56,833 nucleotides of DNA from IMG/VR virus record IMGVR_UViG_3300045125_000114; one strand, given 5' to 3'. The notes below the pieces were generated by a model that saw only the letters and a program-made list of their open reading frames with translations, had not been told where the DNA came from and searched no databases. The stretch's first letter is position 1; every line of letters starts with the position of its first letter. Shown one piece after another: positions 3,471 to 48,476 of the stretch. The DNA is from an uncultured virus (IMG/VR IMGVR_UViG_3300045125_000114). Its lineage: Duplodnaviria; Heunggongvirae; Uroviricota; Caudoviricetes. The position numbers and the translations under genes were made by a program.

Positions 3471-3937
3471 TCACGGTTCGTAAACTACAACTCGGATGTC
3501 CGACCAATGGAGGTCGTGTACTCGTTGAATTTCGGCCCTAACTTGATACCAGTTCAATCCGCCTAACCCGCATCCCAACGGTGGAATGGCGATGGAAGTG
3601 ATTCCCTTTCCTTAATTTCTTCCACCAGATTTTGCAGCCCGCAAATGATCCAGTCCATTTGCGACGGCTGCTTCCAGTGAGTCTTTGGTCGGAAAATTGA
3701 CAACGTATACCGGGCGGGCCTTGTCGTCTCTGCGAGATTCGGGGTTCTTCCATATGTGCATCTGACCGGTTTTACTTCTCTCTTCCTACAAGCGTTCTTG
3801 TAGGCGTTGAACATATGGGGGAACTTGTTCTTGAACAACAGAGCCAAGCCCTTGCCCATCTTGCCGTAGCAGTTGACGGTGTTGACAAGGGCTTGGCAGT
3901 CCGATTCCAGTATGTCGCCTTTGACGAACTCAATCAT
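3471..3937 (-). CDS. Macrodomain ADP-ribosyl hydrolase, DarG-like (frameshifted)
   Basis: MIEFVKGDILESDCQALVNTVNCYGKMGKGLALLFKNKFP...NFPTK(D)HWKQPSQMDWI..GL...SIAIPPLGCGLGGLNW, the DarG-type macro signature. Confidence 0.88.
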
Positions 3938-4239
3938 TACTCGTACCTTGAAGTGTCTTGATCCTTTTCCATCTTCAACTCTTTTTTGACAATTCTCTGA
4001 GTTGCGGCAAGGATGCGGCCGTGAAGCTCCCAATTTCGGTCTTGGCCGTTTAGCGGCGGAATGTACCACGGCTTGTGCAGAGCGGACATCACCATTTCCA
4101 CACGGGCCAGTTCTGCCGCCGACTGAATCAGTTCCTCGTGCCCATTGAAATCGGGATCGTCAGCAGCCGCCGACAAGTGACTCGTACACATTGTAGCAAA
4201 CGGCAAAATCAAAAGAAAATCTCCTTGTAAGCCATTTCA

Positions 4240-5815: not shown

Positions 5816-6372
5816 TCACGCCACATGATGGTTCGTACCTGCGGCTTGATCGGAACAATGATTTTCCGTGGTGAGCCTCGTGACTGCGGAAACCACCCAT
5901 GATTCATCCCTGAGTTCCTGACGGATTTTCATCCACAACATGCCGAGCATGTTTTGGCCGAACCAAGTCCCGTCGTCACGTCGGGCAGCGCCCCAAAAAG
6001 CCGCACGCTCTTTTCCGCTGCGTGCGGTCACGTCTTCGACAATCGGCTCGTCGCCGGTTGCGATTAGTTGCTCTTTGAGCGAGGGGTGTTGCTCGATCTT
6101 GAGACGAAGGACAAACTCCATGTTATCGAGGTCTTGAGCAGACATCGGCTCGACAGTCATTTCGGAAGCGTGCGCCTTCGCCTTCATTTTGGCGCTCATG
6201 GGCGAACGCTCGGCCCGTATCTCTTCCTGAACCTTCTCGTTCTCGTGGAATCGCAAGGCTTGGAACAGGTGTTCGGCCGTCTTCCAAGTCTTTCCTTGGC
6301 AGAAAATGGGGAACGGAGCCATGTTCCCAACCACCCGAATGGGGCACGCACTTTTGTGAAAGCAATTGTCAT
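5816..6372 (-). CDS. NADAR (YbiA/DUF1768) family protein
   Basis: MTIAFTKVRAPFGWL(G)NM..FPI....WKTAEHLFQALRF...SPMSAK...KIEQHPSLKEQLIATGDEPIVED...FWG...GQNMLGMLWMKIR. Confidence 0.88.
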
Positions 6373-6377
6373 GGCCG

Positions 6378-6406
6378 ATTCTACCTCGAATTCGGTGGGT
6401 TGTAAA
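6378..6406 (-). promoter_or_regulatory. Sigma70-like promoter, probably leaderless, for NADAR
   Basis: TTTACA-N17-TAGAAT, then 5 nt and ATG. Confidence 0.6.
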
Positions 6407-6418
6407 GTACATACCCAC

Positions 6419-6810
6419 ATGCTAGGTTTCAAGAAATGGTTCAGTTCGCAACCTGCCGCTCCCATTCACTATGACGGTCCAGTTCGTTACGGGGACCGTG
6501 ATATTGTCGTGGTCATGGTAAATGGCAAAAGGCAATCTTTTTACCGATCAACCGGCCAAAACAGCGGCATGGCCGGTAAATGGTTGCCGCTTCGACGGAA
6601 TCGGATTTCACCCATCACAAGGTTTATGGTTCGTCAAAGATCGCTTCGTTAATGCCCAATTCAACAGGTACGGCAACCAAGAACTCATGAACGTGGGCAA
6701 AACGCTGGACGGGCAAAAATTCCCGTCGGGCCGTCAAATGTCCGACCCGATCCAAATAAACAAATGGATCGGGTCGGACGAATCTAACACCGCCAACACT
6801 ATACTGATTT
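6419..6810 (+). CDS. Hypothetical protein in opposite orientation (possible late/virion internal protein)
   Basis: MLGFKKWFSS...SFYRSTGQNSGMAGKWLP(F)DGIG...RYGNQEL from joined frames; preceded by GTACATA. Confidence 0.6.
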
Positions 6811-17404: not shown

Positions 17405-17478
17405 GGGTAAATTCCTCCATGCCATTGTACGCCCATCTTACCTCAGAAACCGACAGACGTAAACCTAAATACCGCACC

Positions 17479-17912
17479 ATGCAAAACTTCTGGACGTGGC
17501 TCGAAAGCGCCGAACCCCACCCGACTGCTGCCGTGATCGTACTCAAAGACGGAAAGGCTTTGATTTTACGGCGAGGAATGACCGCACCTTGGATGCCCGG
17601 CAAATGGAACCTGCCGGGGGCGGAATCGAAGAGGGCGAATCACCACAACTTGCGGCCGTTCGTGAGTGCGAAGAAGAGGCCGGACTTACACCGACCGGCG
17701 TGACTTTTTACAAGAAAGTCTACGATCCGGGATTTACTTTGTATTTGTTCAAAGGCAAAACGACCCAAGAGCCGCACATCGACTTTGAAAGTGATGGCTA
17801 CGCTTGGGTCGCACTTCAAGATTTGAAACATTACCAATTCGTGCCTCACGTTGGCGAAGCACTGGCGTCTGTGTTATCGCAGACAGATGTAGGTTACAAG
17901 GCCGACAACTAA
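17479..17912 (+). CDS. NUDIX hydrolase in opposite orientation (frameshifted)
   Basis: WNLPGGGIEEGESPQLAAVRECEEEAG Nudix box; N-terminus MQNFWTWLES; preceded by CTAAATA. Confidence 0.85.
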
Positions 17913-18691: not shown

Positions 18692-19275
18692 TCATTGTGG
18701 TTTACCTACAAGGCCGTAAGCCTGAACCAGAGCCTTCGTGAAAAACGAAGGGTCGTCGCTCATCGCCTTCAACCAGATCGGCAGATATTCGTCGTACTTG
18801 GGGTCAATGGGCTGACCCTTCAAACCGTTGGCAATTTCCAAAATCAGCCGCAACTTGTCTAGTTGACATCCGCCCCAAGCACTTGCGAAGCCGCTGGGGT
18901 CAAATTCTTCGACATTTTGCACCGGAGCGGGTTTTTGCCACTGTGCGGCAGTAAGACCAAACACCTGCTCGGCATTAAACACATTGGCGGTTTGCGCGCA
19001 GTCGGGTGACGGGCCACAACAATGTTCGCCGCCCACTGGCCTTCTGTCACAGTTTCGGGACGCTTTTTCACCTTCAGTCGCAAGTGACCCCATTGTTGGT
19101 AAGTTGCCCAATAGGGACTTTTGAAGCCGTGTCGGAGAGCGTGAGCATTCAACAGCATGGCGTTGATGCCGTTGTAATTCGCATTAGACCATGCGTTGAC
19201 AGGAACCATCCCCGCTCGCCACGGGGGTTGGCCTGCACGCATGGCTTCGGCGATATAGTCAACTTGCTTGTTCAT
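18692..19275 (-). CDS. ArdC-like N-terminal ssDNA-binding (DUF1738) protein (frameshifted)
   Basis: GQPPW...PVNAWSNANYNGINAMLL......FKSPYWATYQQW...KVKK...VFNAEQVFG. Confidence 0.78.
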
Positions 19276-20359
19276 TTTGAATGCGTTGAATACGAGAAGC
19301 CACAAATGCCACGCACACGCCCAAACTGTCAGCGTGTCCGTTCATGTACATTTGCAGGGCATTCGATAAACCGGCCAAAAGACCGGCATAGAAATCTGCC
19401 GATTCGTTACCGGCAAACAACGCCGCCAATTCCTTCTCGGTTTCAGGGCTGATGTGTTCCATTTGTGCAGCGAATTGCTGCACAATTTCACGCTTGTACC
19501 GATGATCGAGTTTCATTTTTTGGCCTTTTAGTGAAACAGGTGTTTCTTGATGGCCCAATACGAGTAACCCATCAAGGTTCGCTCCTGTTGGGCGAATTCC
19601 TTGTACTCGGCTTCCGAGAACAGGTCGGCACAGAACTTGAACACGCCACGGTCGCCGAGCATTGCGACCGTCTCGCCCGGCTGAGAGCTGTGCCGTCAAT
19701 TCGGCAAAGCCGCTGCCGGTACTGACGAGTTTTCGCCCGCCCGCATCACGAATCGCTTGCTCGTTTGCGGGGTTGAAATAGCGGCCCATTCTTTTCCCTT
19801 TCCAATTGAGATACTGAACAACTTCGGGACCGGACGGCGGCTCAGGTTCGCCGCCGTTTCTGTAAAGCTGAACGACTTTTTGTGCGTCTTCGAGAGAACA
19901 TACTGGTATTAGTCCCAAGGCCACGGCCACGCTTGTCAAGCTGGAACCAACAAAATGGAAAATACCAGAGTCTCACTTGGGCTTCGTAGCCACAATAATT
20001 GTCTTTGATTATCCGGTATTTATTCTTGAACATCGCTTGTACCCTTCGCAAGCACAGGTTTGGGAGTTGCACTGCAGCTTGAGACTGGCTTCGCTGTTGA
20101 TCGAAAGCCACGCCTCAATCTTATCAACTAAACCTGCCGGACCAAGCTTCAATTCGTGTTCTTCGATGATGTGCCGGGCCGAATCCGAGCCGCATGACGC
20201 ACTTGGAAATCGCCCCACGCTTCATAATGGGCATGACCCACACGCCGACCCAAACCCCGTCAACGGTCAACAGCGTCGATTCCGAGCGTGTAATCGTCTT
20301 GCCCCGACGTTCCAGTTCGCCGATCACGTCCTTGAGAACAAGCAAACGAGCGGCTTCGG

Positions 20360-24339: not shown

Positions 24340-25140
24340 TCAGTCGTTACCGGCAAGTTTTTGCCGCAGACGGAGCATTTCGATGTACAACCAAACCAGC
24401 GTTACCATCAGGCCCGAAAGCCCCGTACCACTCGTACCACTTCGGAGCCTTGTCTTCGGCCGCTTGGACAATTTCATCGAAATCGAACACGAGGGAAATC
24501 GCCCCGACCACCACGATGCCCATTTGCAGCAAATGCCCCAAGTGCCGTTGCTGTGAACGACCGGAACATACGATCCGAACAGCCGCATCACGCTGTCGGT
24601 CATGTAGAGACAAAGAATCCCCAACATCGCCACCAACAGAATCACGGCCAATTTTTGGGTCGGCGTGATTAAACCGGTAGAGTAAAGCACCAGCATCGAC
24701 AGCGCCGTGCCAAACACGCCGACCGTGGCCTCAATTACGATGCCCGGATATTTTGCTTCAAAACCTGCCGAAATCGCCCCAAGCGCCAAACCCTCACATG
24801 CGGCATAAAGCCGGGGCAGGAAAGGTGCCGAACGTTTCCAGAAAATTACCACCATCGCCACGACAGAAGCCGACCAAAATCCCGCCCGTTGCCAGACCGA
24901 TCACGTTGTTCGGAATGCTGATTGAATCAGGCGGCTTATTCCCCGCTGCCTCGGCAGCGACTTTTGCTTGAGCAAACTGTTCGGAATAGCCCTGCGTCGA
25001 AAGGTGCCAGGTGAAGCCGAACGTCACGGCTAAAATGGCAAACAACACAATCGACTTGAAAGCGGTTCCGACCACGGTCGCACGATTGGAAGTGTCGTGA
25101 TCCAGTGGTCCGTCGTACTCGTTCAACGCTGGATTACTCA
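24340..25140 (-). CDS. Bax inhibitor-1/YccA family membrane protein (frameshifted)
   Basis: YAACEGLALGAIS..FEAKYPGIV..A...LYSTGLI...LVFDFDEI....KAPKWYEWYGAFGLMVTLVWLYIEMLRL. Confidence 0.85.
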
Positions 25141-32813: not shown

Positions 32814-33290
32814 CTATTCGGCTTTCAATCTCTTGGCCCAAATTTTCACCCTTTCGGCCAAATCCTTCAAGGAGTAGGAAATCTCAGGATTCCAAGGACG
32901 ACCCAAGCCCAACTGAACCTCCAAATCAATTTTTCGCTTGTAATCCGGGTGACACCCAACGAACAAAGGATCGGCCCGCTCGCAAAACTTCCCCAACTCG
33001 AACAAGGTAATGGGGCAGAGAGTTTCGTGAGGGAACCAAAACAACCGTGCCGCCGAGAGTCGGAGATACTTATATTCCCACTTGATTTGTTGTTCGGTCA
33101 TAGTGGGGTCAGTGATGTCGAAATTATCCCGGCGAGGGTTGATTAAAACTAAATCAGTGTCCTTGAGCAGTTCTACCATCTCAGGCTGCCATTGAGGACA
33201 GCTAGAAATGCCGCCGCCCAAGAACAGCATGTCATCTCGGATGTTGCCGTTCTTGAAGTCGTATTCGTCGGGACAGCGAATCTCTTTCAT
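32814..33290 (-). CDS. Nucleoside 2-deoxyribosyltransferase-like protein
   Basis: LFLGGGISSCPQWQ...INPRR.....QQIKWE..L.....FWFP.ETLCPITLFELG. Confidence 0.8.
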   Translation of the reverse strand: MKEIRCPDEYDFKNGNIRDDMLFLGGGISSCPQWQPEMVELLKDTDLVLINPRRDNFDITDPTMTEQQIKWEYKYLRLSAARLFWFPHETLCPITLFELGKFCERADPLFVGCHPDYKRKIDLEVQLGLGRPWNPEISYSLKDLAERVKIWAKRLKAE

Positions 33291-34607
33291 ACCTGCTCCA
33301 GTCGGAACATGCCAAGCGTCCACATGCAGCGTTGCAAGATGGTGTTGGCGTGATTGATGGCGTATTGGAACCCGTAACGACCGTCGTTGATCTTTTCTTT
33401 ATGATAAGCTTTGCCCAAACGACGGGCAAGGTCGTGGGCGAAGTTAGCCATTTGAGTGGAGTCCATAGTTTCGACACAACGTTTGTGGTAAAACGTAAAG
33501 TAATTGGCGAAACCAATCAGGTCTGCATCGTCTTGGGTCAGATCGTAGTAAGGGTCCGGGTGTTTCTTGCTTTCCCACGGAGACGTTTCCTCGTCTCCGA
33601 AACCCAACTTCATCGCCTTCATCGTGTGAGGCGGGAAGTGATACCAGCTTTTCCCCGCGCCGCCTTTTTGACACGGGCGAAAGTGTAGGTGATGTAAAGC
33701 CCCGGAGCGTCGGCCTTTGTCCAGTCGGCCGGATTGTACTTTACATTTTGTGTACGAGCGACGGTCAAGAAGTTCCACGCCAGTACGTTCCACGCCAACT
33801 TTCGCTTGTCGGGGCACGAATCTTCCAGATTCTCCATCACTTCTTCCATGATGGCTTCTGCTTTCGGCGAATCAGCGGGCACACCTTCTTTGCTGGCACG
33901 GGACTTCAACTTTTTACCATCAGAACCCAACACCAACCCCATTGGCAGGTGCTTGTCGCCCAGACCCAAAGAGGCAAAGTGTTCTTTCTGTTCCGCTCCG
34001 GTAATGTAATGTGTAGGTCCGACAAGCTTTGCGAAGGCCAAATCGTGGAAAGCGTACAACGGCGATCCGTCGTATCGCTTGACTTTTTACCGGGCCGTTC
34101 GGACCTTCCCAAACCCACGGCAGTTCGTGTTCTTCTAACAGCAACGTGTTGGTGTCGTCTTTGTAACCTTGGCGACGGCACTCCACCAAGTCACGAGGCA
34201 TCAACACGTCGTAATACAGTTCCGGCTTGAAGTCGAGAAACTCGAACCACTTTTCTAGGGCGTCTGGTTGAAGTCTTGTAGACGCCCTGACTGGCTCCGA
34301 GCAACGAAACGAAACTGATCTTTTCGCCGCTGTCCCCGCCGTATTTCAACAGGCACTTCAACGAATTTGCTACTGCCAGTTGGGCGCAAGTGCCCGGCAT
34401 GAAGCTCTTTGTTGAGGTTGGGAGAAAACCCGTCAATGACGTAATTGTTTTCTACTTGAAACCATTCGGGCCAGTCTTGACACTCTGGCGTGACGTAGTA
34501 ATTCCAAATGCGACCAACGTTCACCTCACGGTAACGTTTGGCGTAGTCGGGCAACTGCTCGTTGGAGAAAATCCAACGCCGTGTGGACCGGTGATGGGAC
34601 GGATCAT
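33287..34607 (-). CDS. argS: Arginyl-tRNA synthetase-like protein, shortened (frameshifted)
   Basis: IDGFSPNLNKELHAGHLR (HIGH), KRYDGSPLYAFHDLA, YITGAEQKEHF, GLVLGSDGKKLKSR (KMSKS-like), APGLYITYTFARV, DALR-like C-terminus ANFAHDLARRLGKAY...LGMFRLEQV. Confidence 0.82.
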
Positions 34608-36826: not shown

Positions 36827-38826
36827 TTGGAAGCTCCTCGGATATATCGGATCGTAATATATCCGAAATCGTCGCCACAATATCAAAAGTCCAGAATCAA
36901 AAAGAAACCTTGACACCGGAAGCACGGCTTTTACAATCGTGTGGACACCCCGGAGAGAAAAATGGAAGAAATGAAAATTGGAAAAAACGGCAGATCAAAA
37001 ACTGGCCGAGCGGATCGTACAGGGCGGCATTCCAGAAGCCCTGAAGGTCGTTTCCGGAACTACAATCGGCCATTGGCGATCAACAAAAAATTGCAGAAAC
37101 CGGCTACGCACAGGCGTACCAAGTCATTGCCGAACTGAGACAACGTTTGGAAAATCAAAAAGCCGAATATGAAAAGCAATTGGAATCAGGCTGCGAAGAA
37201 GCCTACCAAATGCTGCTGAACGAGAAGGAAGAAGAATGAGAAACTGGAAGCCACCCTCTACGAAGAGTATGAAATCAAGCTGCGGGAGATGAAGAATCAC
37301 ATTGTCGATAAAGTCGATCAGTTCCTCAATTTGCAGGGCCAAAAATTTGCACAACACCCGCAGGGCGAGGAAGCAGGATATAAAGAATTTCGTTCGACTC
37401 ATACGGCAGAACGGGTCGTTGTCGATGCTTTGAACGAGCGATTCTCGCACCTGCCTCGGACGACGAAATGCCGCCCGTGCGTGAAAAAGAACTGATTCGT
37501 ATTCTTGAAGCCAAACTCATGCGGCTACAAGTTGAGAACCGCAAACTTAATGAGCGGGTAGCAAAACTAGAAGCAGCCGCCCCGAAACCCATCATGGACG
37601 ATGTGTTCAAGGGCGGCTTGCTCGGCGGCATCGGTCACTACACCAAAGAACAACTTGAAGAAGGTGCCAAATATTACGGCACCATTCGTCTAGGGGGCGA
37701 AAATGACACCCCCGACGAACGTGACACCACTCACGACCTGTAATCAGGACAGCAAATCCAATAGGTTGTCGATTTCTTCAAGGCTCGAGTGCCAACGGTT
37801 GCACTTCCTCGGCCGTTGGCACCGGAGTACGAGCCTGCTTCGCCGCCACACGAATCGCCCGTCCGAGCGATTCGTTGACCAAGACGTAAGTGTACTCGAT
37901 CCCGTCCTTGTAATATCCCTTGGTCGGGTGCCAATTCACCGTCTTCGTCACCTTGTTCGAGAACACGGTGCAGATCGACGGTTCGTTCCACGGCAACGGT
38001 TCCCCGTAGCCGATCACCTGACCCTCGGCGTTTCGGATGCGAGGCTTTTTTGCACACGGTTGTGGGGAGCCTTGCGATCCCACCGCTCCCACGACTTGGC
38101 ACGCCGAGCTGCCTTGTCGTAAGCGGCGTTGAGTTTGCGAAGCTTGCGGCTCGTCTCAAGAGAGACGGGGTGAAAGCCCCACTTGCTCTGGAAAGTTTCA
38201 ATAGTCGTAGCCATTTTAGTTGCCCTCTTCGTCTTTGAAATTATCGCCATCTCTGAAGGACGGAACAGCGGCGATAAACCGTTCACGGTCCTGTTCGGAT
38301 TGAAAGAAATACTCGATGTAGAAGCAGTCAGTAACCACTCTTGGTCAGACACATCCCGGCCCAATTGCCTTCGTGGGAGTGTTCCCCCGGATCGTTGGTA
38401 CTCCGGGGCTTTGCCTTTTACCACCCGGCCGTCCTTGGTCGTGTACTGGTAATCCCTTAACGTCTTCGTCGCCAGCACCACCGGACAAGCCGGATATTCG
38501 CTGTAATAGTCGTGACACTTGCCGTCACACGGACTCACGTTTGCCCACAACCAGCGTGAAGCAAAATCGTCGATACGGTTCGTACCCTCCAACACCGCCG
38601 AATATGGAAATCTTTCCATCAAACTCCGTCTTGTCGATTCTTTCTTTTCAACAACCGACAACATCAGCGCTATTGACTCAGGGTTCCGCTTCTCTACAGA
38701 TTCCCGGTGTTCACGTTCGTGTTCGATCCATTCCTCGTAAGATGCGAGACGGATCGTATCTTCATTTGTCATGACGTAGCTTCCCCTATGGCACAAGTGC
38801 CCACAGTTACAGGTTGATTGTTGGAA

Positions 38827-39169
38827 TTAGGCAACCGGAGACAGTTGAAGCGACGGAACAGGTGCCGACGGTCCCCGAAAATCGGTTCCGTGGCAAAAGC
38901 CCGTTAGTTGGTTGTCTCGGTCGGGTTCGATGAAAGGAACACACTCCACGCCCAAACCCCGGATTTTCTCCAGAGTACGGTGAAGTTTTTGTTCGTGGTC
39001 GATACCGACGACCACAAGATGAGGGTGATCGAGGTGTTGTGGAATTAGACCCTTACGGGCCAGTTCGATGCCAGCGTGTGCGGTTTGAACGACGATCTGT
39101 TCGACGGGCAAATCTTTTGCGAACAAAGATGTAAACGTGGTTGACAGTGTCAGAAATCTAGTGAGTCAT
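38827..39169 (-). CDS. Peptidyl-tRNA hydrolase II-like protein with an in-frame amber (TAG) at codon 4
   Basis: ATG ACT CAC TAG ATT TCT GAC ACT GTC AAC CAC GTT TAC ATC TTT GTT CGC AAA = MTH*ISDTVNHVYIFVRK; after a 1-nt A-run slip it continues DLPVEQIVVQTAHA...HLVVV...FIEPDRDNQLT, a Pth2-like pattern. Confidence 0.75.
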
Positions 39170-39888
39170 GTTAGTCTCAGTTAGAGCTAGGGTTGAGGTT
39201 GAATCCGCCCGTATGTTTAGTCTGGCCGTCCGGTGCGTTGTCCGGCCACACTTCGCCCTTGTATTGTAGTAGCAGGCAGACCACTTCGTCAACGGCACGA
39301 GGCGATTTTAGTCGCAAAACCAGATCGCCAAGCCCCTTGACTTGCAAACTGGGGGCCACCGCTGTGGGCTTCCCGGTTCCGTCCGTTGAAGGGCACCACG
39401 CTCCGACCGTGTAGCCTTCGAGTTGCGGACCCATTAGAGGACTTCCCATCGCATTCCCTCTTTCGTTACCGCCTACTCTACTACGGTTTTCCGCCGGTTG
39501 TCTATCAGATTTTTCTGAAGCGTGCACGGAGCCAGTTCCTGGGGTCGATTTTCTTCCGCAAAGCTGCCGACGGCCACGGACTTTGTCCTTTTCCTTCATG
39601 AAGAAGTCCGATTGCTCACACTCAAATATCTTGTACTCGAAAAACGGACAGGTTTCGTAGACATAGGTGAATTTGCCGGTTTTGGCAATATTCAGTTTGC
39701 GGCCGGTCTGTGTATAACTCAGCATTTCCAAATAGCCCTCGGCGTCTTCGAGGGTCGGATAGACAACAGAATCCGAAACCACGGTCGTTTACCAGTTCCC
39801 ACGGCGGGTCCATTTCGGCATCCATCCAGCCGGGGCGAGGGCGATAGGCAACGACATAAAACTTGAAGTTTTTCATATGGTTCCCTCG

Positions 39889-39920
39889 AAAAAAAGAACC
39901 GGGGCAATTGCCCCGGTTCT
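39889..39920 (-). terminator. Intrinsic terminator
   Basis: AGAACCGGGGCAATTGCCCCGGTTCT followed by a T run on the minus strand. Confidence 0.8.
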
Positions 39921-40175
39921 GGAAGCTAGGTTTCACATTGCCAGTGCCCTCCGGGGTTAGAGCCATCGACTTTCAACATACATATGGTGGGTTACGCCCG
40001 GCAGCGGTCAGACTACCGATGAGCCACATCGGGCTGCAATACAGGGCTTGGCCCTCTTAAAAAATATGGTTGAAATTTTTCAGGTTGTCGGCGGTCCACG
40101 AGGCATGACGATATCCTTTCTGCCGTGGGTTAGATTTTGCCGCTCCGGTTTATTCAAGCCGGTTCGTCGGCAGCT

Positions 40176-40493
40176 TCAGTCCCACTGCTTTTGGGTTTCG
40201 ACAGCAGCTCCCACCAGCCGATCTTTCGGTTGGCTTCCGACCATCGTTTCAGTTGCAACCCCGCCGTTGAACACGATTAACGTGGGCAGGGCGCTGATAT
40301 TGTAATCCGTGCAAAGATCACGGTTTTCTGTAGCGTCTACCTTCACCACTTTGAAGCCCTCGGCAGCGAGTTCCTTCAAAGTTGGGACCATGCCCCTACA
40401 TGGGCCGCACCAGTCGGCGTAGAAGTCCACCAGCACGGGCACCGTAGATTCCAGCACTTCGCTCTTGAAAGAGTCTTTATTCACGTTGGTCAT
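40176..40493 (-). CDS. trxA: Thioredoxin
   Basis: PVLVDFYADWCGPC...ISALPTLIVF. Confidence 0.92.
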   Translation of the reverse strand: MTNVNKDSFKSEVLESTVPVLVDFYADWCGPCRGMVPTLKELAAEGFKVVKVDATENRDLCTDYNISALPTLIVFNGGVATETMVGSQPKDRLVGAAVETQKQWD

Positions 40494-41014
40494 TTTTTCT
40501 CCGTATTTGTGAGCCACTTTCCCCATTCCTGCTTGTCAGCCTCTTCTGCCACATCGGACAGAAGATCGGGTCGGTCGAGCATGTTGTCAACAGGCTCGCC
40601 CCAGCCCTTGCCCTTTTGGGCGTCCCAAATCTCGTGCAAGCCCTTCTCGTTCGGGAAGCCCCAAGGGAATACACTTGCCAAATGGCTGGTATTTACCAAC
40701 TTTTGGTCGGTTTATTACATCCGGGCCAAAGTAAAGGCGTACATCACGATGTTGCCCGGCGAACCGTTCGACAGAACGCAAGCAAGAATCGCCGTCCCGA
40801 CACTGACCTTGCCGCCGTAAAGCTGGAGCCGCTGATAGAGAATCCGACCCACCAGCCCACATTCGGCAGCGTGGGTTTCGTTAAACTCTTCCGGCTCTTT
40901 GGCCTGCTCCAGCATGGCCGCTTGCAAGAAAGATCTCAGACGTTTTTAAGCTCATCGGCTCTCGATGGCTGGTGTCCATCAGAGACGGTATGTAGTGCAA
41001 CTTGTTCATGGCAG

Positions 41015-43354: not shown

Positions 43355-44094
43355 TCAGTTGTTGGACGGGTCGAACCCGAACTTTCGTTGGGACTTGGTC
43401 TTTTGCAAAGGGGCGATGCTTGCAATTTTATCCAAGTCGAAAATCAGACCGGGTTCTGCGTCACGGACTTCCCATGCGCCATTTTCGATTTCGCTCTCAA
43501 GCTGACCCGGTGCCCACCCCGACATGCCGGTGAAAAGCCGGTACTTATTGTCGGCAGACAGTCCGGCGGCAAAAATCCGAACAAGAACCTGCGGCCCGCC
43601 AAAGTAAATGCCCGGCACAATTTCCGGGTTTTCCCTAAGCGCTTCGGCGAGCGTACCAAACTCTTCGTCATTCTCTTCCTTCTCGAAACCCATGCCGATT
43701 TCGTAGGAATTATCTTCGCCTTCTTCCTCTTCTTCCTCTTCTTCCTACGACCCGGAACGAAGGGGTAATGTCCATGTTCTCGTCGTCCTTTGGAGAACTG
43801 TTCGTAGCCGTGAACCATGAACAGAGAACCTTGCATACCGAGCGGCCCGCCAAGGCGCATGGCAATTGACGTGATGTCCCCGCTTTCTACACGTTCGGTG
43901 ACATCGCCAATGCTTTCGGGCAATTGATCCTTTTTGTCAACGGCACCGAAGGCCACTTGCCCGACTTCGGGACCGTTCAGGATGAACCCGGAAATTCCCT
44001 TGTCGTCGTGCTTGCTGATGAACACGACCGAACCGGCGAAAATCGGGTCGGTGATCGAGGGCTTCGCCACCAACAGCTTGCCTGTGTAATTCAC
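43355..44094 (-). CDS. YqgE/AlgH (DUF179) family protein with an acidic insertion (frameshifted)
   Basis: GKLLVAKPSITDPIFAGSVVFI.KHD.KG..GFILN...LGGPL...RLFTGMSGWAPGQLESEIENGAW. Confidence 0.85.
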
Positions 44095-46195
44095 GATTAT
44101 TCCTCTTTGAGCCGATGAATTTAGTTGTTTGGACAAACCTGTTACTTGTCCTTAATTCGGTATCCGTAAACGTAGTAGTTGTAGCCGTTGCTCACGTTCA
44201 CGCCGCCCATAACGTGACGGAGTTCGACATCCTTGCCGTAGTACAGACTCAGATACAACTGAATCCATTCGGGCGTAAAACCCTTCACCTTTTCATCTGC
44301 CGCCTTGCGAGCAGCCTCGGCCTTCTTGTAGTCCCACTCTTGTAGGCGATCACTGTAGTCGTAACTCAGACCCTTTTCTTCGGCGCCCCAGACTGTGCGT
44401 GCCTCGTTCCAATACGAATTGCTGTAGTGGATGTATGGGAACAGTGGCCTTCATGTTGTGGTTGACGAAAGCGGGGCAGTTGTCCAGTCCTTCAAGTTCG
44501 TAGCCGCCGAAGTCGTTGAAATGAACACGGGTCTTAGCCACTTTATTCGTCCCTTCCGATAACTTTGTTGTAATTCTCTACGGCTTTAAGGTGCGGCTTT
44601 TAGGGTCTGTGGGTTGGGATCGGCGAGGAAAGCCTTATATGCCTCGACCTTGAGATTCAAAGCGTGCAGAATCTTCTTGTCTTCTTCGGTCGGTTTTTCG
44701 TCGGGTCCGAACCAGAACATGACATTTCCTCGCAAAGATACTACCTCACAAAATGTGGGTTGTATACCGATCAAATCGGAATGCTTCTGTCTATTTTCAT
44801 CTCAAGTTCTTCGTACTTAGACAACAAACTAGGCAAGCGAGTGATTGGAGCATCAATCCGCTTCTCGGTTGATGGAATACCCATCAAATCTGCGATTGAG
44901 TACCCGTGTCCGTCCCAATTTTTCAAGAGAACGTTTTTCCTCTTTAAGATCGGACCATTCCTTTGCACCGCCGTGAGAGCCGTGGATGCCGTGAATCGGG
45001 AATAAAACGTAATGAGGCATCGACCAATACAAATCAAGAACTGTTCCCAACAAAGTGTTGGGCTTCTTGAAAATTACGCCCGTCCCAATCGTGATCCGTA
45101 CAAACAGACACTATCTCCACACTCGGTAGGACTGTAAAACATCGTGTCCGACAGAGCACGTGAGTGGCTTGTTGTGGAAAAACAGTCTCAGTGACATCAT
45201 CGGCTGCCCGTAGTACAAAAAGCCGCCGGGCTTCCTGTAATACTACCACAAAAGTATAGTACGGATACCATACTGTGGCGATATATGGGCGTAACGTGGT
45301 ACTGTCCTTGAGACAATAAATGGAACGGCGTTCAGGCTCGCTACTATTGATGGAAAGACAACGACCTTTATCGTAGGTGTTGTCAAGATCGAGATTTGTG
45401 ATATCGCAGATTCATTGCGACCTCAAAAACGCCTCAGTTTGGAGGGACAGTCGTCGTAATTCAGAACCACACTCTCGTCAGGCTTGGCACGAGCAACTTT
45501 CTTCTGTCCCCACGCCACGATAGCAGCTTTCCATCGGCGAAAATACAAAATCGCCTCTTGAGCCGACTCATACCGACATTGACTGTAGAAATGATCGGTT
45601 TTTAGACGAGTTCATCGGCTGATACTGCCACCACAGCCCGTTCTTGTTCGGGCAAAAGTTGTGACGGAGAATGGCCCAGCGGTCGGGGCCACCGTCGGGA
45701 TTGCCCATGTTCTTGACCGTAACCATCGTCGGCTTGTCGTCAAACGGCTTTCAGGCGGATCAAGAAAGCCTACCGGAAACGATAGGCTCTGGTCCCACGT
45801 TGAATTCGCACGCCATTTCTAACAGTTCGGCGTCTGTAACTTTTTCCATGTCAATCACCAGCGAGTTTGGACTTCAACCACTCGTCGTTTTTCTTCTTTC
45901 GCTCTGGCGTCCACCACGAGCGAAAGTCTGTTCACACTTGTGACGACTCTTTCCACAACTCTCTTCTGCTGAAATGTCTACGAGTAGATTTTGCCACTGC
46001 GCCTCTTCTTGATGTCGGTCGCCTGTCCGAGACAGGGACAGAATCTTGTCGAAGCCATCCGTGTAGGAAACGTCTTTTTCAAGCACCGTTCCGTCTTTGG
46101 TAAGATCATAAAGAACGGTGTAGGTTTCGTCCCTTCTTGCCGACGGTCGAAAGGCGATAAAGTAGCCATTTTTCTCTCTGTTAAAAAAGAAACAG

Positions 46196-46266
46196 CGTCC
46201 CGTGCAGGAGTTGAACCCGCTTCTTCCGGGTTAGAGCCGGAGGCACAGCCGATATACCAACGGGAC
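46196..46266 (-). tRNA. Amber suppressor-type tRNA, anticodon CUA (Glu-like acceptor stem)
   Basis: GTCCCGT-TG-GTAT-ATCGGCT-GTGC-C-TCCGG-CTCTAAC-CCGGA-AGAA-GCGGG-TTCAACT-CCTGC-ACGGGAC-G; complete cloverleaf, CCA not encoded. Confidence 0.85.
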
Positions 46267-46270
46267 AAAA

Positions 46271-46347
46271 TGCCCTCACCGGGATTTGAACCCGGACTGA
46301 CGAGAGTTTTAGAGACCCGCGCACTACCGTTGTGCTGCTAAGAGGAT
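46271..46347 (-). tRNA. Second tRNA with CUA anticodon (Trp-like anticodon arm; imperfect)
   Basis: D arm GCAC-AACGGTA-GTGC, anticodon arm CGGGT-CTCTAAA-ACTC, T arm CCGGG-TTCAAAT-CCCGG. Acceptor pairs 5 of 7; small duplications may be read errors. Confidence 0.65.
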
Positions 46348-47327: not shown

Positions 47328-47815
47328 TCAGATTCCCAGACCCGGCTCGAACGTGCCTCGTGCGTTTCGGTAAGACTCGATCAAATTGATCGGCATCCAA
47401 GAGGCACACTCTCAGACCCTTCGACCAACTTTTTCAACTCGTCAAACGTCACCCACTGCCAGCCCTCACACTTGTCCGGTTCGGCATTGACCGGCTCGCC
47501 GCTGACCCAATTGGCCGCAAGGAAAATGGTGATATAATGCTTCCTGTACTGAGGCATTATGTCGTTTGTGACAAACCATTCCAACCGATTCTTGTTGAAA
47601 AATTGGAAAGAAACCTTGAAGTCAGGGCCGCACTCTTCTTCGAGTTCACGGTGCCCACAGTCCAACAGAGTTTCCCCAAAATCAAGGTGCCCGCCGGGGG
47701 AAAGAAAACAGGCCGGAAGCGCGTGCCGCTCGCGACGACCGACAAGCACTTTGCCGTCCTTGACTACGATGATGCCGGTTCCGACACGGACTTGAGGTGC
47801 GAAAGCAATTTCCAT
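47328..47815 (-). CDS. NUDIX hydrolase, NUDT15/MutT-like (frameshifted)
   Basis: VRVGTGIIVVKDGKVLVGRR...PGGHLDFGETLLDCGHRELEEECG...HYITIF...EPDKCEGWQW. Confidence 0.88.
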
Positions 47816-47821
47816 TTTTGT

Positions 47822-48476
47822 TCCATCACAGGGGTTTGAATTCGATCCCATCGAGATGAGGGACCATGTCTTTGATCTTGTAACCGAAACAGAACAGCGG
47901 GATGAAATCAACCGCACCTTTCATCGAATCCTTCCAAAGTTCAAAACGGGCAGAATCGTGGCTCTGCGTAGAAAACACTCTGCCAATAACCCGAAACCTA
48001 CTGCGTCTGCCAGTTGCGGGAGTGTCTTGTAAGAAGGCTCAACAGAGTTGCCCATGCAGACGTTCAGGTACTCGCCTTCGTAATTTCCAAGAGGCAGAGC
48101 GTGGAGTGTAGCTTTTGGATCGTTCGGGCAATCAAGGCTGAAAACCGATCTGCGTGTTGAAATAAACGAATCTGGTCGTGTGTTTTTCGTGTACTATCCC
48201 GTATCGCACGATGAAAGTTGTATACGGAAATTCGAGACGAACGAAAGCCGGAGACTCGGTGCCTCGAACCTTAACCTGTATAGTTCTAGTTTGAGGCTTT
48301 TGAGTCAAAACCAGATAGTTGATAGAACTCATGCAGCCACGATCTTCCATGCCGTACCGCTGGTAATTGCAGCGTACACCCTTGGCTATATCCGCTCGCA
48401 TCGCTTTCGGTCTGCGAATCAGCCGGACGAAAAAACGTGTGAGCGGATTATACCTGAGCCAGTGTAAAATACTCAT
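47822..48476 (-). CDS. Hypothetical protein, weak resemblance to prokaryotic E2 family D
   Basis: RLEFPYTTFIV...LHALPLGNY...NVCMG pattern; frameshifted. Confidence 0.35.

Follow-up and report, generated by a model that had tools for sequence, protein, structure and literature searches.

Autoregulatory recoding is exemplified by prfB, with its in-frame UGA and +1 frameshift, and by infC, with its AUU start. Among phages, those using genetic code 15 insert an amino acid at TAG by means of a suppressor tRNA which the phage itself encodes (PMC9523058, PMC11210395). Short open reading frames (ORFs) such as lambda bar and the toxic minigenes are described as favouring peptidyl-tRNA drop-off (PMC2490762, PMC10192219). 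Many large phages of the standard code also carry amber-suppressor tRNAs without known purpose, and the locus described here is a conserved and specific candidate target for these. It lies on the minus strand of a 56,833-nucleotide stretch of DNA from an uncultured virus of the Caudoviricetes (IMG/VR record IMGVR_UViG_3300045125_000114), the whole of which is referred to below as the window. It is probably a phage gene for a protein of approximately 110 amino acids with the Pth2 (peptidyl-tRNA hydrolase 2) fold, the translation of which would be gated at an amber codon, codon 4, by the phage's own suppressor tRNA.

A first-pass annotation of the window, made by a model from the sequence alone, had noticed an ATG-ACT-CAC-TAG minigene at this locus. 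This leader is present on the minus strand (39169-39158) and is preceded by a 201-amino-acid ORF ending with TGA (39179-39177), as had been described. Its frame reads MTH*ISDTVNHVYIFVRK, and the claim that no ATG, GTG or TTG follows the TAG is borne out. A weak Shine-Dalgarno (SD)-like GAGA lies 6-9 nt 5′ of the leader ATG. Relatives of the window ORF were identified with tblastn in 27 phage records, while blastn with window positions 38000-40000 gave no match among phages. Together with metagenome sequences, for which the best 80 of 137 relatives were taken, the searches, which were seeded with sequences of the TAG clade, gave a pool of 131 loci, of which 130 were evaluable, and 99 distinct N-terminal contexts were left after duplicates were dropped.

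The first-pass annotation had itself proposed to look for the TAG in homologs, and comparison of homolog N-termini found it to be conserved. In 75 of the 99 distinct contexts a start codon is followed by 0-12 sense codons and then by TAG, 3-11 codons ahead of the conserved strand. Seventy-three of the contexts are TAG-interrupted with no intervening ATG, two have the leader and a later ATG, and 24 are of other types, three of these being leaders which precede a fused N-terminal domain. The leader stop is TAG in all 75 cases and never TAA or TGA. The occurrence of an in-frame TAG so soon after the start is far beyond chance. In the first three phage homologs examined (GAP32, Arash and the uncultured LR756511), the frame upstream of the WIYxFVRxDLP strand reaches a TAG preceded by an SD sequence and ATG. 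The leader is ATG GCA CAA TAG in phage GAP32, ATG CTG TAG in Arash, ATG ACT TAG in ME3 and ATG TTG TAG in RsoM2USA, and that of the window is found unchanged in LR756511 and in loci L120, L122, L123, L127 and L131. Phages XacN1, Xoo-sp13 and RAS14 have ATG AAG (AAG) TAG ahead of a fused N-terminal domain, with no ATG in the first 15 codons past the leader in RAS14. The leader form was identified in 17 of 37 IMG/VR loci and in 78 of the 79 evaluable loci that came from metagenomes (best 80 of 137 relatives), some of them with GTG starts. Most leaders (60/73) have one to three sense codons after the start, and an SD-like tetramer lies ahead of the leader start in 67 of 73, where roughly one in four would be expected by a rough reckoning made with no shuffled control. 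The sense codons of the leader vary and the TAG is fixed.

A 3′ purine context favours amber suppression, and 73 of the 75 leaders have A or G directly after the TAG, as against 51% purine at the first positions of the codons that follow. The trait spans branches of more than one change per site on a domain tree that is poorly resolved. RaK2 and Hallingskeid, which have ordinary ATG starts, are nested inside TAG-type clades, and no tRNA-CUA was found among their tRNAs (0/8 and 0/7 respectively).

A further line of evidence is the linkage of the gene to genes for tRNA-CUA. The window has just two tRNA genes, in tandem, both with the anticodon CUA and both on the strand of the Pth2-like gene, and the same tandem pair is present 9.7 kb upstream of the gene in the related contig G001. 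For TAG-type loci, the stretch that was fetched contains a tRNA-CUA in 26 of 35 cases where it is at least 8 kb long, in 11 of 20 where it is 3-8 kb and in 5 of 20 where it is shorter. All 47 tRNA-CUA genes of these loci lie on the strand of the Pth2-like gene, with offsets that cluster at -135 to -161, +690 to +900 and +1.3 to +4.3 kb, and in some cases the tRNA ends only 32 nt (L129, L130, L141) or 29 nt (L146) before the leader ATG. Of the 382 tRNAs in these loci, 56 have the anticodon CUA, as against one out of 26 for the whole of GAP32 and one out of 25 for the Arash cluster. Each of the eight leader-bearing named phages encodes a tRNA-CUA (GAP32, Arash, ME3, LR756511, RsoM2USA, RAS14, Xoo-sp13 and XacN1), which whole-record checks placed elsewhere in the record in the case of RsoM2USA, RAS14, Xoo-sp13 and LR756511. 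The records of GAP32 and ME3 annotate it ('Sup-tRNA' and 'anticodon CTA' respectively), and the published description of XacN1 gives two tRNA-CUA genes per terminal repeat (PMC5852040). The suggestion of the first-pass annotation that the output of the locus depends on amber suppression fits this tight linkage, including the two window tRNA genes which it did not mention, and to that extent it stands. Of the ordinary-start members, 9 of 24 adjoin a tRNA-CUA, one locus pair adjoins a tRNA-UCA and one locus a tRNA-UUA, and it follows that the whole family goes with suppressor tRNAs, the amber gate being an added layer.

ARAGORN labels tRNAs of this anticodon 'tRNA-Pyl', which does no more than mirror the anticodon, and a pyrrolysine tRNA was rejected, the general tRNA model being matched by each of the two tRNAs of the window. 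Use of the TAG as a start codon for an initiator-like tRNA-CUA was also rejected, since the distance from SD to ATG is fixed and that from ATG to TAG varies from 0 to 12 codons; the tRNAs inspected begin with an ordinary paired 1:72 end (by eye, judged by the rules for initiators). As to the amino acid that the suppressors would carry, the tRNA-CUA of GAP32 is nearest to its own tRNA-Lys (72%) and that of Arash is near to nothing in particular. Two to three tandem tRNA-CUA genes lie downstream of the amber-led gene in L175/L176 (+2463, +2562, +2640), L168 and L185. A tRNA-UUA, of the ochre type, is found near some members (L198 at -1398, L074 at +5128 and RAS14 at 302428-302502), and no TAA-led member was found among the loci examined. 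By eye, a sigma-70-like TTGACT-N17-TATATT is present between tRNA-CUA and leader SD in L191 (1532-1607) and L195 (829-905), which suggests that the amber-led gene has its own promoter there.

The peptidyl-tRNA hydrolase-like fold claimed for the downstream domain is supported by the closest intact relative, locus L004 of contig G001. Its AlphaFold2 model (predicted local distance difference test score 90.1, predicted template modelling score 0.85) has the alpha/beta fold of Pth2, and its best 13 Foldseek matches in the PDB are Pth2 chains (template modelling scores 0.63-0.72, E-values 8e-6 to 4e-4). A 20-member profile searched against the PDB also gave Pth2 chains first (E-values 1e-4 to 4e-4). 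The Pfam family PTH2 (PF01981) was matched by 15 of 21 members at an E-value of 1 or less, the best being 9.3e-10; L004 scores 17.3 bits, under the Pfam cut-off of 23, while XacN1 ORF364 (25.3 bits) and Hallingskeid (23.5 bits) exceed it. With the 99-amino-acid ORF of the window, Pfam gave no family at an E-value of 1 or less, and its neighbours gave nothing useful. The alignment of 20 sequences (A4) has 10 invariant residues; in place of the Pth2 loop residues the invariant ones include R13, D15, Q20, Q24, H27, E77, P78, D79 and T85. The family is nearly restricted to phages, with four loci found in the genomes of 185,579 species (one genome each).

Some members of the family are fused or placed differently. 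A conserved ORF of approximately 130 amino acids (FKxKAxxKTLTxxDM...FTPG...), here called domain X, lies between the suppressor tRNA and Pth2-like genes with an ordinary start, and it is fused to the Pth2-like N-terminus in L032/L033 and L026/L027, including tRNA-UCA loci. It is absent from the TAG-type loci and from the window; neither a Pfam family nor, at an E-value of 0.001 or less, a similar fold in the PDB was found for it. In jumbo phages of Xanthomonas and Stenotrophomonas (L098 5446-6306, which is XacN1 ORF364, L101 and L103), the Pth2-like domain follows a fused N-terminal one of approximately 170 amino acids with the pattern WHDIGKP...FPNHA...AHDM, which is HD-like by eye, has no Pfam match and is itself preceded by the amber leader. 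A distant member, L022 (1489-1788, on the contig also of L079), has an ordinary ATG and an internal in-frame TAG at codon 60, followed by the conserved FYEPDRNNEMTAFA, with a tRNA-CUA 4.1 kb downstream.

In the mechanism that we favour, translation would start at the ATG at 39169 and meet the amber at codon 4. As the frame of an intact copy passes straight from the TAG into the domain, the full protein would be made only when a suppressor tRNA decodes the TAG, this being supplied by the phage's two tRNA-CUA genes (46195-46346). In the absence of suppression, release factor 1 (RF1) would terminate translation after a tripeptide, which, given the early position of the TAG, would be a harmless product. 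Competition between suppressor and RF1 at the TAG would then set the amount of enzyme, with the amber acting as a gate or as a gauge of suppressor activity. The substrate of the enzyme and the purpose of the coupling are inferred. The preferred purpose is homeostatic control of the suppressor or of peptidyl-tRNA load, where the enzyme may act on the suppressor's own ester (negative feedback) or clear the peptidyl-tRNA arising from readthrough; a timing checkpoint, with the enzyme made once the phage tRNAs are functional, is our second choice. It is possible, although we rather doubt it, that tRNA-CUA and the amber-led gene form a self-measuring two-gene circuit which governs nonsense suppression, with the enzyme setting the level of amber suppression by acting on the suppressor ester or on readthrough peptidyl-tRNA. 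If true, such a governor would be a natural tRNA-based counterpart of the autoregulation of release factor 2, and would provide the long-sought function, and perhaps the sole target, of the orphan suppressor tRNAs that GAP32, XacN1 and other jumbo phages of the standard code carry.

The sequence of the window has to be read with its frame breaks in mind. The leader had been reported as in frame with the domain, which is not so in the sequence as given and is the case only once an extra A is removed. In the alignment with L004, the closest relative found (mean column identity of 82%), the window shows exactly two single-base additions, one in a run of AAAA and the other in a run of GGG. What had been given as a single YIFVRKDL strand is two frames which the first-pass annotation fused across the AAAA run (39118-39115). 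Past the first break the leader frame reads ...VRKRFARRTDRR... and stops after 38 codons: the uncorrected frame continues beyond ISDTVNHVYIFVRK as RFARRTDRR..., soon ended by a stop, and VRKDLPVEQ is recovered when CGCA is read as a single step. The second break was overlooked, and the C-terminal part AFATEPIFGDRRHLFRRFNCLRL lies one further base shift away from the frame of the domain body. As for the TTG at 39126, earlier named as an alternative-frame start, its frame results from the extra base and it is no rival start. The gene ends at a TGA (38771-38769) which shares bases with the start codon of the next ORF, as ATGA.

The relatives are unbroken, their leader being in frame with the domain. 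The two breaks sit 14 and about 86 codons past the TAG, both in homopolymers, and the substitutions between the window and L004 keep all three segments coding. The extra base of the GGG run is missing from all three public contigs which span the site (runs X2, X3 and X4). Most ORFs of the syntenic G001 stretch match two to three frames of the window, and within the window a BaxI_1 domain (24343-24900, 24350-24730) and an AlgH-like domain (43447-44151, 43358-43744) are each divided between two frames. With the second break absent from these contigs and most window genes switching frame, the breaks look like assembly errors; both most likely arose as homopolymer errors of one base in an assembly rich in indels and are not biology, the extra base of the AAAA run being probably of this nature. 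The longest ORF in these 57 kb has at most 466 codons, owing to the window-wide frame breaks, and the reading of TAG, TGA or TAA as sense was ruled out as the cause of the short ORFs. The window looks like a fragment of a large phage with single-base frame breaks in most of its genes.

A number of points weigh against suppressor-gated expression of a hydrolase. The reading of the leader TAG by the suppressor is itself deduced from sequence, and the window copy as given is broken twice, with no public contig over 39036-39179 and hence none over the first break or the leader. Of the long TAG-type loci, 9 of 35 have no tRNA-CUA in the fetched stretch, where it may lie elsewhere in the genome. The complete contig G003 has the leader and no tRNA-CUA among its 30 tRNAs; the tRNA at its syntenic site (L064 13902-13977) has the anticodon CCG and a diverged sequence. 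The Pth2-like protein of G003 (L064) is identical to that of its sister contig's locus L065, which has a tRNA-CUA. In L126, L132, XacN1 and Xoo-sp13 an ATG occurs a few codons past the TAG, and suppressor-independent starts are possible in these. The TAG-type share is biased upward by the seeding with TAG-clade sequences and by the selection of the best 80 of 137 relatives. Many of the loci are related, so that the counts are not independent events, and five state changes suffice on the tree. With regard to the enzyme, the catalytic residues of Pth2 are the Lys of the GK loop and the Asp and Thr of DAGxT. In the alignment of the family profile to 2zv3/24bt the GK loop is two residues shorter and its Lys is missing, and an invariant EPD, in a loop shorter by four residues, stands in the place of DAGxT. 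As the catalytic loop is altered, hydrolase activity is uncertain.

The alternative that survives best, though it is improbable, is that the TAG is a true stop and that the ORF of two to four codons is a coupling leader, and that synthesis of the protein begins further on, through termination-reinitiation or from a non-canonical codon, for example ATT. An ATT does come right after the TAG in the window, ME3 and RsoM2USA, and an ATG or GTG soon after it in L126, L132, L131 and L167. However, there is no conservation of the codon that follows the TAG (AAT, AAC, ACT, GTA, GTT, GAC, ATT and CTA all occur), a coupling leader could use any stop, whereas TAG is used in 75 of 75 cases, and the linkage to tRNA-CUA would be left unexplained.

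That TAG is a sense codon throughout these phages, as in code 15, which would make the leader TAG an ordinary one, we regard as very improbable. The two tRNA-CUA genes of the window and the internal in-frame TAG of the distant member L022 would accord with it, as would the rarity of TAG as a terminal stop in GAP32, where it terminates 9 of 301 ORFs of at least 150 codons. GAP32 nevertheless has no excess of ORF pairs split by TAG, the plus-strand pairs split by a single stop numbering 45 for TAA, nine for TGA and two for TAG, and reading TAG as sense hardly extends the ORFs of the window. For XacN1, readthrough of each of the 18 amber stops by its authors is reported to have identified no target genes (PMC5852040). 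Nor would an ordinary codon be expected to keep one place close behind the start over such deep divergence. TAG is most probably not a general sense codon in these phages. In GAP32 the Pth2-like ORF is the sole ORF of at least 80 codons with an ATG-N-TAG leader and without an ATG of its own; other amber-led candidates at 301714 and 311457 and a TAG-split pair at 285625 were rejected on inspection of the annotation: the first is an off-frame ORF within an adhesin gene, the second has an ATG of its own and the third consists of two distinct genes.

The first-pass annotation had proposed a bar-like minigene, with tripeptidyl-tRNA dropping off as a substrate of the downstream hydrolase, so that the locus would make either the substrate or the enzyme. 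The length of the leaders, mostly one to three sense codons, fits toxic minigenes, and the recycling by Pth of early drop-off products is established (PMC2490762, PMC10192219). This model nonetheless has very little probability, because the last sense codon varies widely (CAC, CTG, ACA, ACG, CAA and others) and no single tRNA would therefore be sequestered, leaders run to 12 codons, the catalytic loop is unlike that of Pth2, and the invariant TAG has no explanation under it. There is only a remote chance of a dead gene, a pseudogene carrying two frameshifts besides a premature stop: the window copy as given does have a stop at codon 4 and two breaks, and G003 retains the TAG with no tRNA-CUA, but leader and protein are conserved in 75 distinct contexts, 10 residues are invariant in A4, the changes relative to L004 leave all three segments coding, and the extra base of the second break is missing from three of three public contigs in a window where most genes switch frame.

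Amber-gated expression by the phage's suppressor may also account for how the gene appears in public records, where it is mis-annotated or missed because gene callers stop at the amber codon. The annotated start of GAP32_397 (JN882285) is 31 codons too late, that of ME3_195 (KU935715) is inside the first strand, and in Arash (OQ632216) the gene is split as gp84c/gp85c. Nothing is annotated at the match site in the public records of fHe-Yen9-04, Serratia phage BF, RsoM2USA and several Erwinia phages. No description of the leader or of the pairing of tRNA-CUA with the Pth2-like gene was found in a full-text literature search, supplements being outside the search. The role of the suppressor tRNA is now directly testable in the cultured phages GAP32, Arash and ME3. 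If the feedback loop is true, it would represent a new natural translational control and a ready part for the tuning of amber suppression.

Elsewhere in the window, genes with Macro, NADAR, two NUDIX, nucleoside 2-deoxyribosyltransferase-like and ArdC-N domains are present, along with an ORF with WCGPC which is thioredoxin-like by inspection. Taken together, these genes suggest ADP-ribose and nucleotide metabolism.

Table. Coordinates of the amber-led gene, its tRNA genes, the frame breaks and other features (window positions unless a locus is named).
Feature	Coordinates	Strand	Remarks
Upstream ORF, 201 amino acids	39177..39782	-	TGA 7 nt before leader ATG; without Pfam family; function not assigned
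Leader: ATG 39169-39167, ACT, CAC, TAG 39160-39158	39158..39169	-	Start, two sense codons and amber
Coding segment 1 (ISDTVNHVYIFVRK), leader frame	39116..39157	-	Carries strand 1 of the fold; SHVYIFVRK of L004 aligns here
AAAA run, one base more than relatives; frame break 1	39115..39118	-	Alignment with L004
Coding segment 2 (DLPVEQIVVQTAHAG...FIEPDRDNQLT)	38902..39114	-	+1 base relative to leader frame; same frame as TTG 39126
GGG run (CCC on plus strand), one base more than relatives; frame break 2	38900..38902	-	Alignment with L004
Coding segment 3 (AFATEPIFGDRRHLFRRFNCLRLPN...)	38769..38899	-	C-terminus, matching the C-terminus of homologs; ends with TGA 38771-38769
tRNA-CUA (amber suppressor)	46195..46266	-	ARAGORN; Rfam tRNA 45.7 bits; approximately 7 kb upstream of the gene
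Second tRNA-CUA, in tandem with the first	46270..46346	-	ARAGORN; Rfam tRNA 32.9 bits
Domain X ORF	L081 6449-6880; L087 4690-5100; L088 9576-9992; L091 9589-9987
Macro, NADAR, two NUDIX, nucleoside 2-deoxyribosyltransferase-like, ArdC-N and WCGPC genes (jointly)	3566-4159, 5819-6421, 17469-17909, 47384-47920, 32817-33398, 18862-19341, 40176-40526
Further records with late-start, split or missing annotation			MG752970, LT960551, KY630187

When set beside known systems, the protein is closest to the archaeal and eukaryotic Pth2 enzymes (PF01981; PDB 2zv3, 1wn2, 1q7s, 1xty and 3erj), with the alpha/beta fold and the RxDL and Q..HA motifs common to both. It differs from these in the shorter GK loop without Lys, in EPD for DAGxT and in being nearly confined to phages, so that the fold is shared and the chemistry would be assigned by analogy. 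The lambda bar and toxic minigenes resemble the leader in having an SD sequence, ATG, one to three codons and a stop. However, no downstream domain continues the frame of a bar minigene, nor are such minigenes bound to one stop codon, whereas here the frame enters a conserved protein and no stop but TAG is used.

As in code-15 phages, a phage tRNA-CUA is found together with an in-frame TAG, and expression would be suppressor-dependent. In contrast to those phages, the code here is otherwise standard, and what is proposed concerns a single gene, with the TAG fixed in position just after the start and the gene, whose product is tRNA-ester hydrolase-like, physically linked to the tRNA itself; in this it is suppressor-dependent expression of a kind unlike code 15. 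The likeness to prfB and infC is that a translation-related gene bears near its start the signal which would report the state of the translation machinery. Unlike prfB, no frameshift is involved, as the relatives need none and the window breaks are very probably artefacts, and the signal would be read by a dedicated phage tRNA. With regard to the orphan suppressor tRNAs of jumbo phages such as XacN1, GAP32 and ME3, these are the same tRNAs, and they are here given a conserved candidate target, which in XacN1 is ORF364, preceded in frame by ATG AAG TAG.

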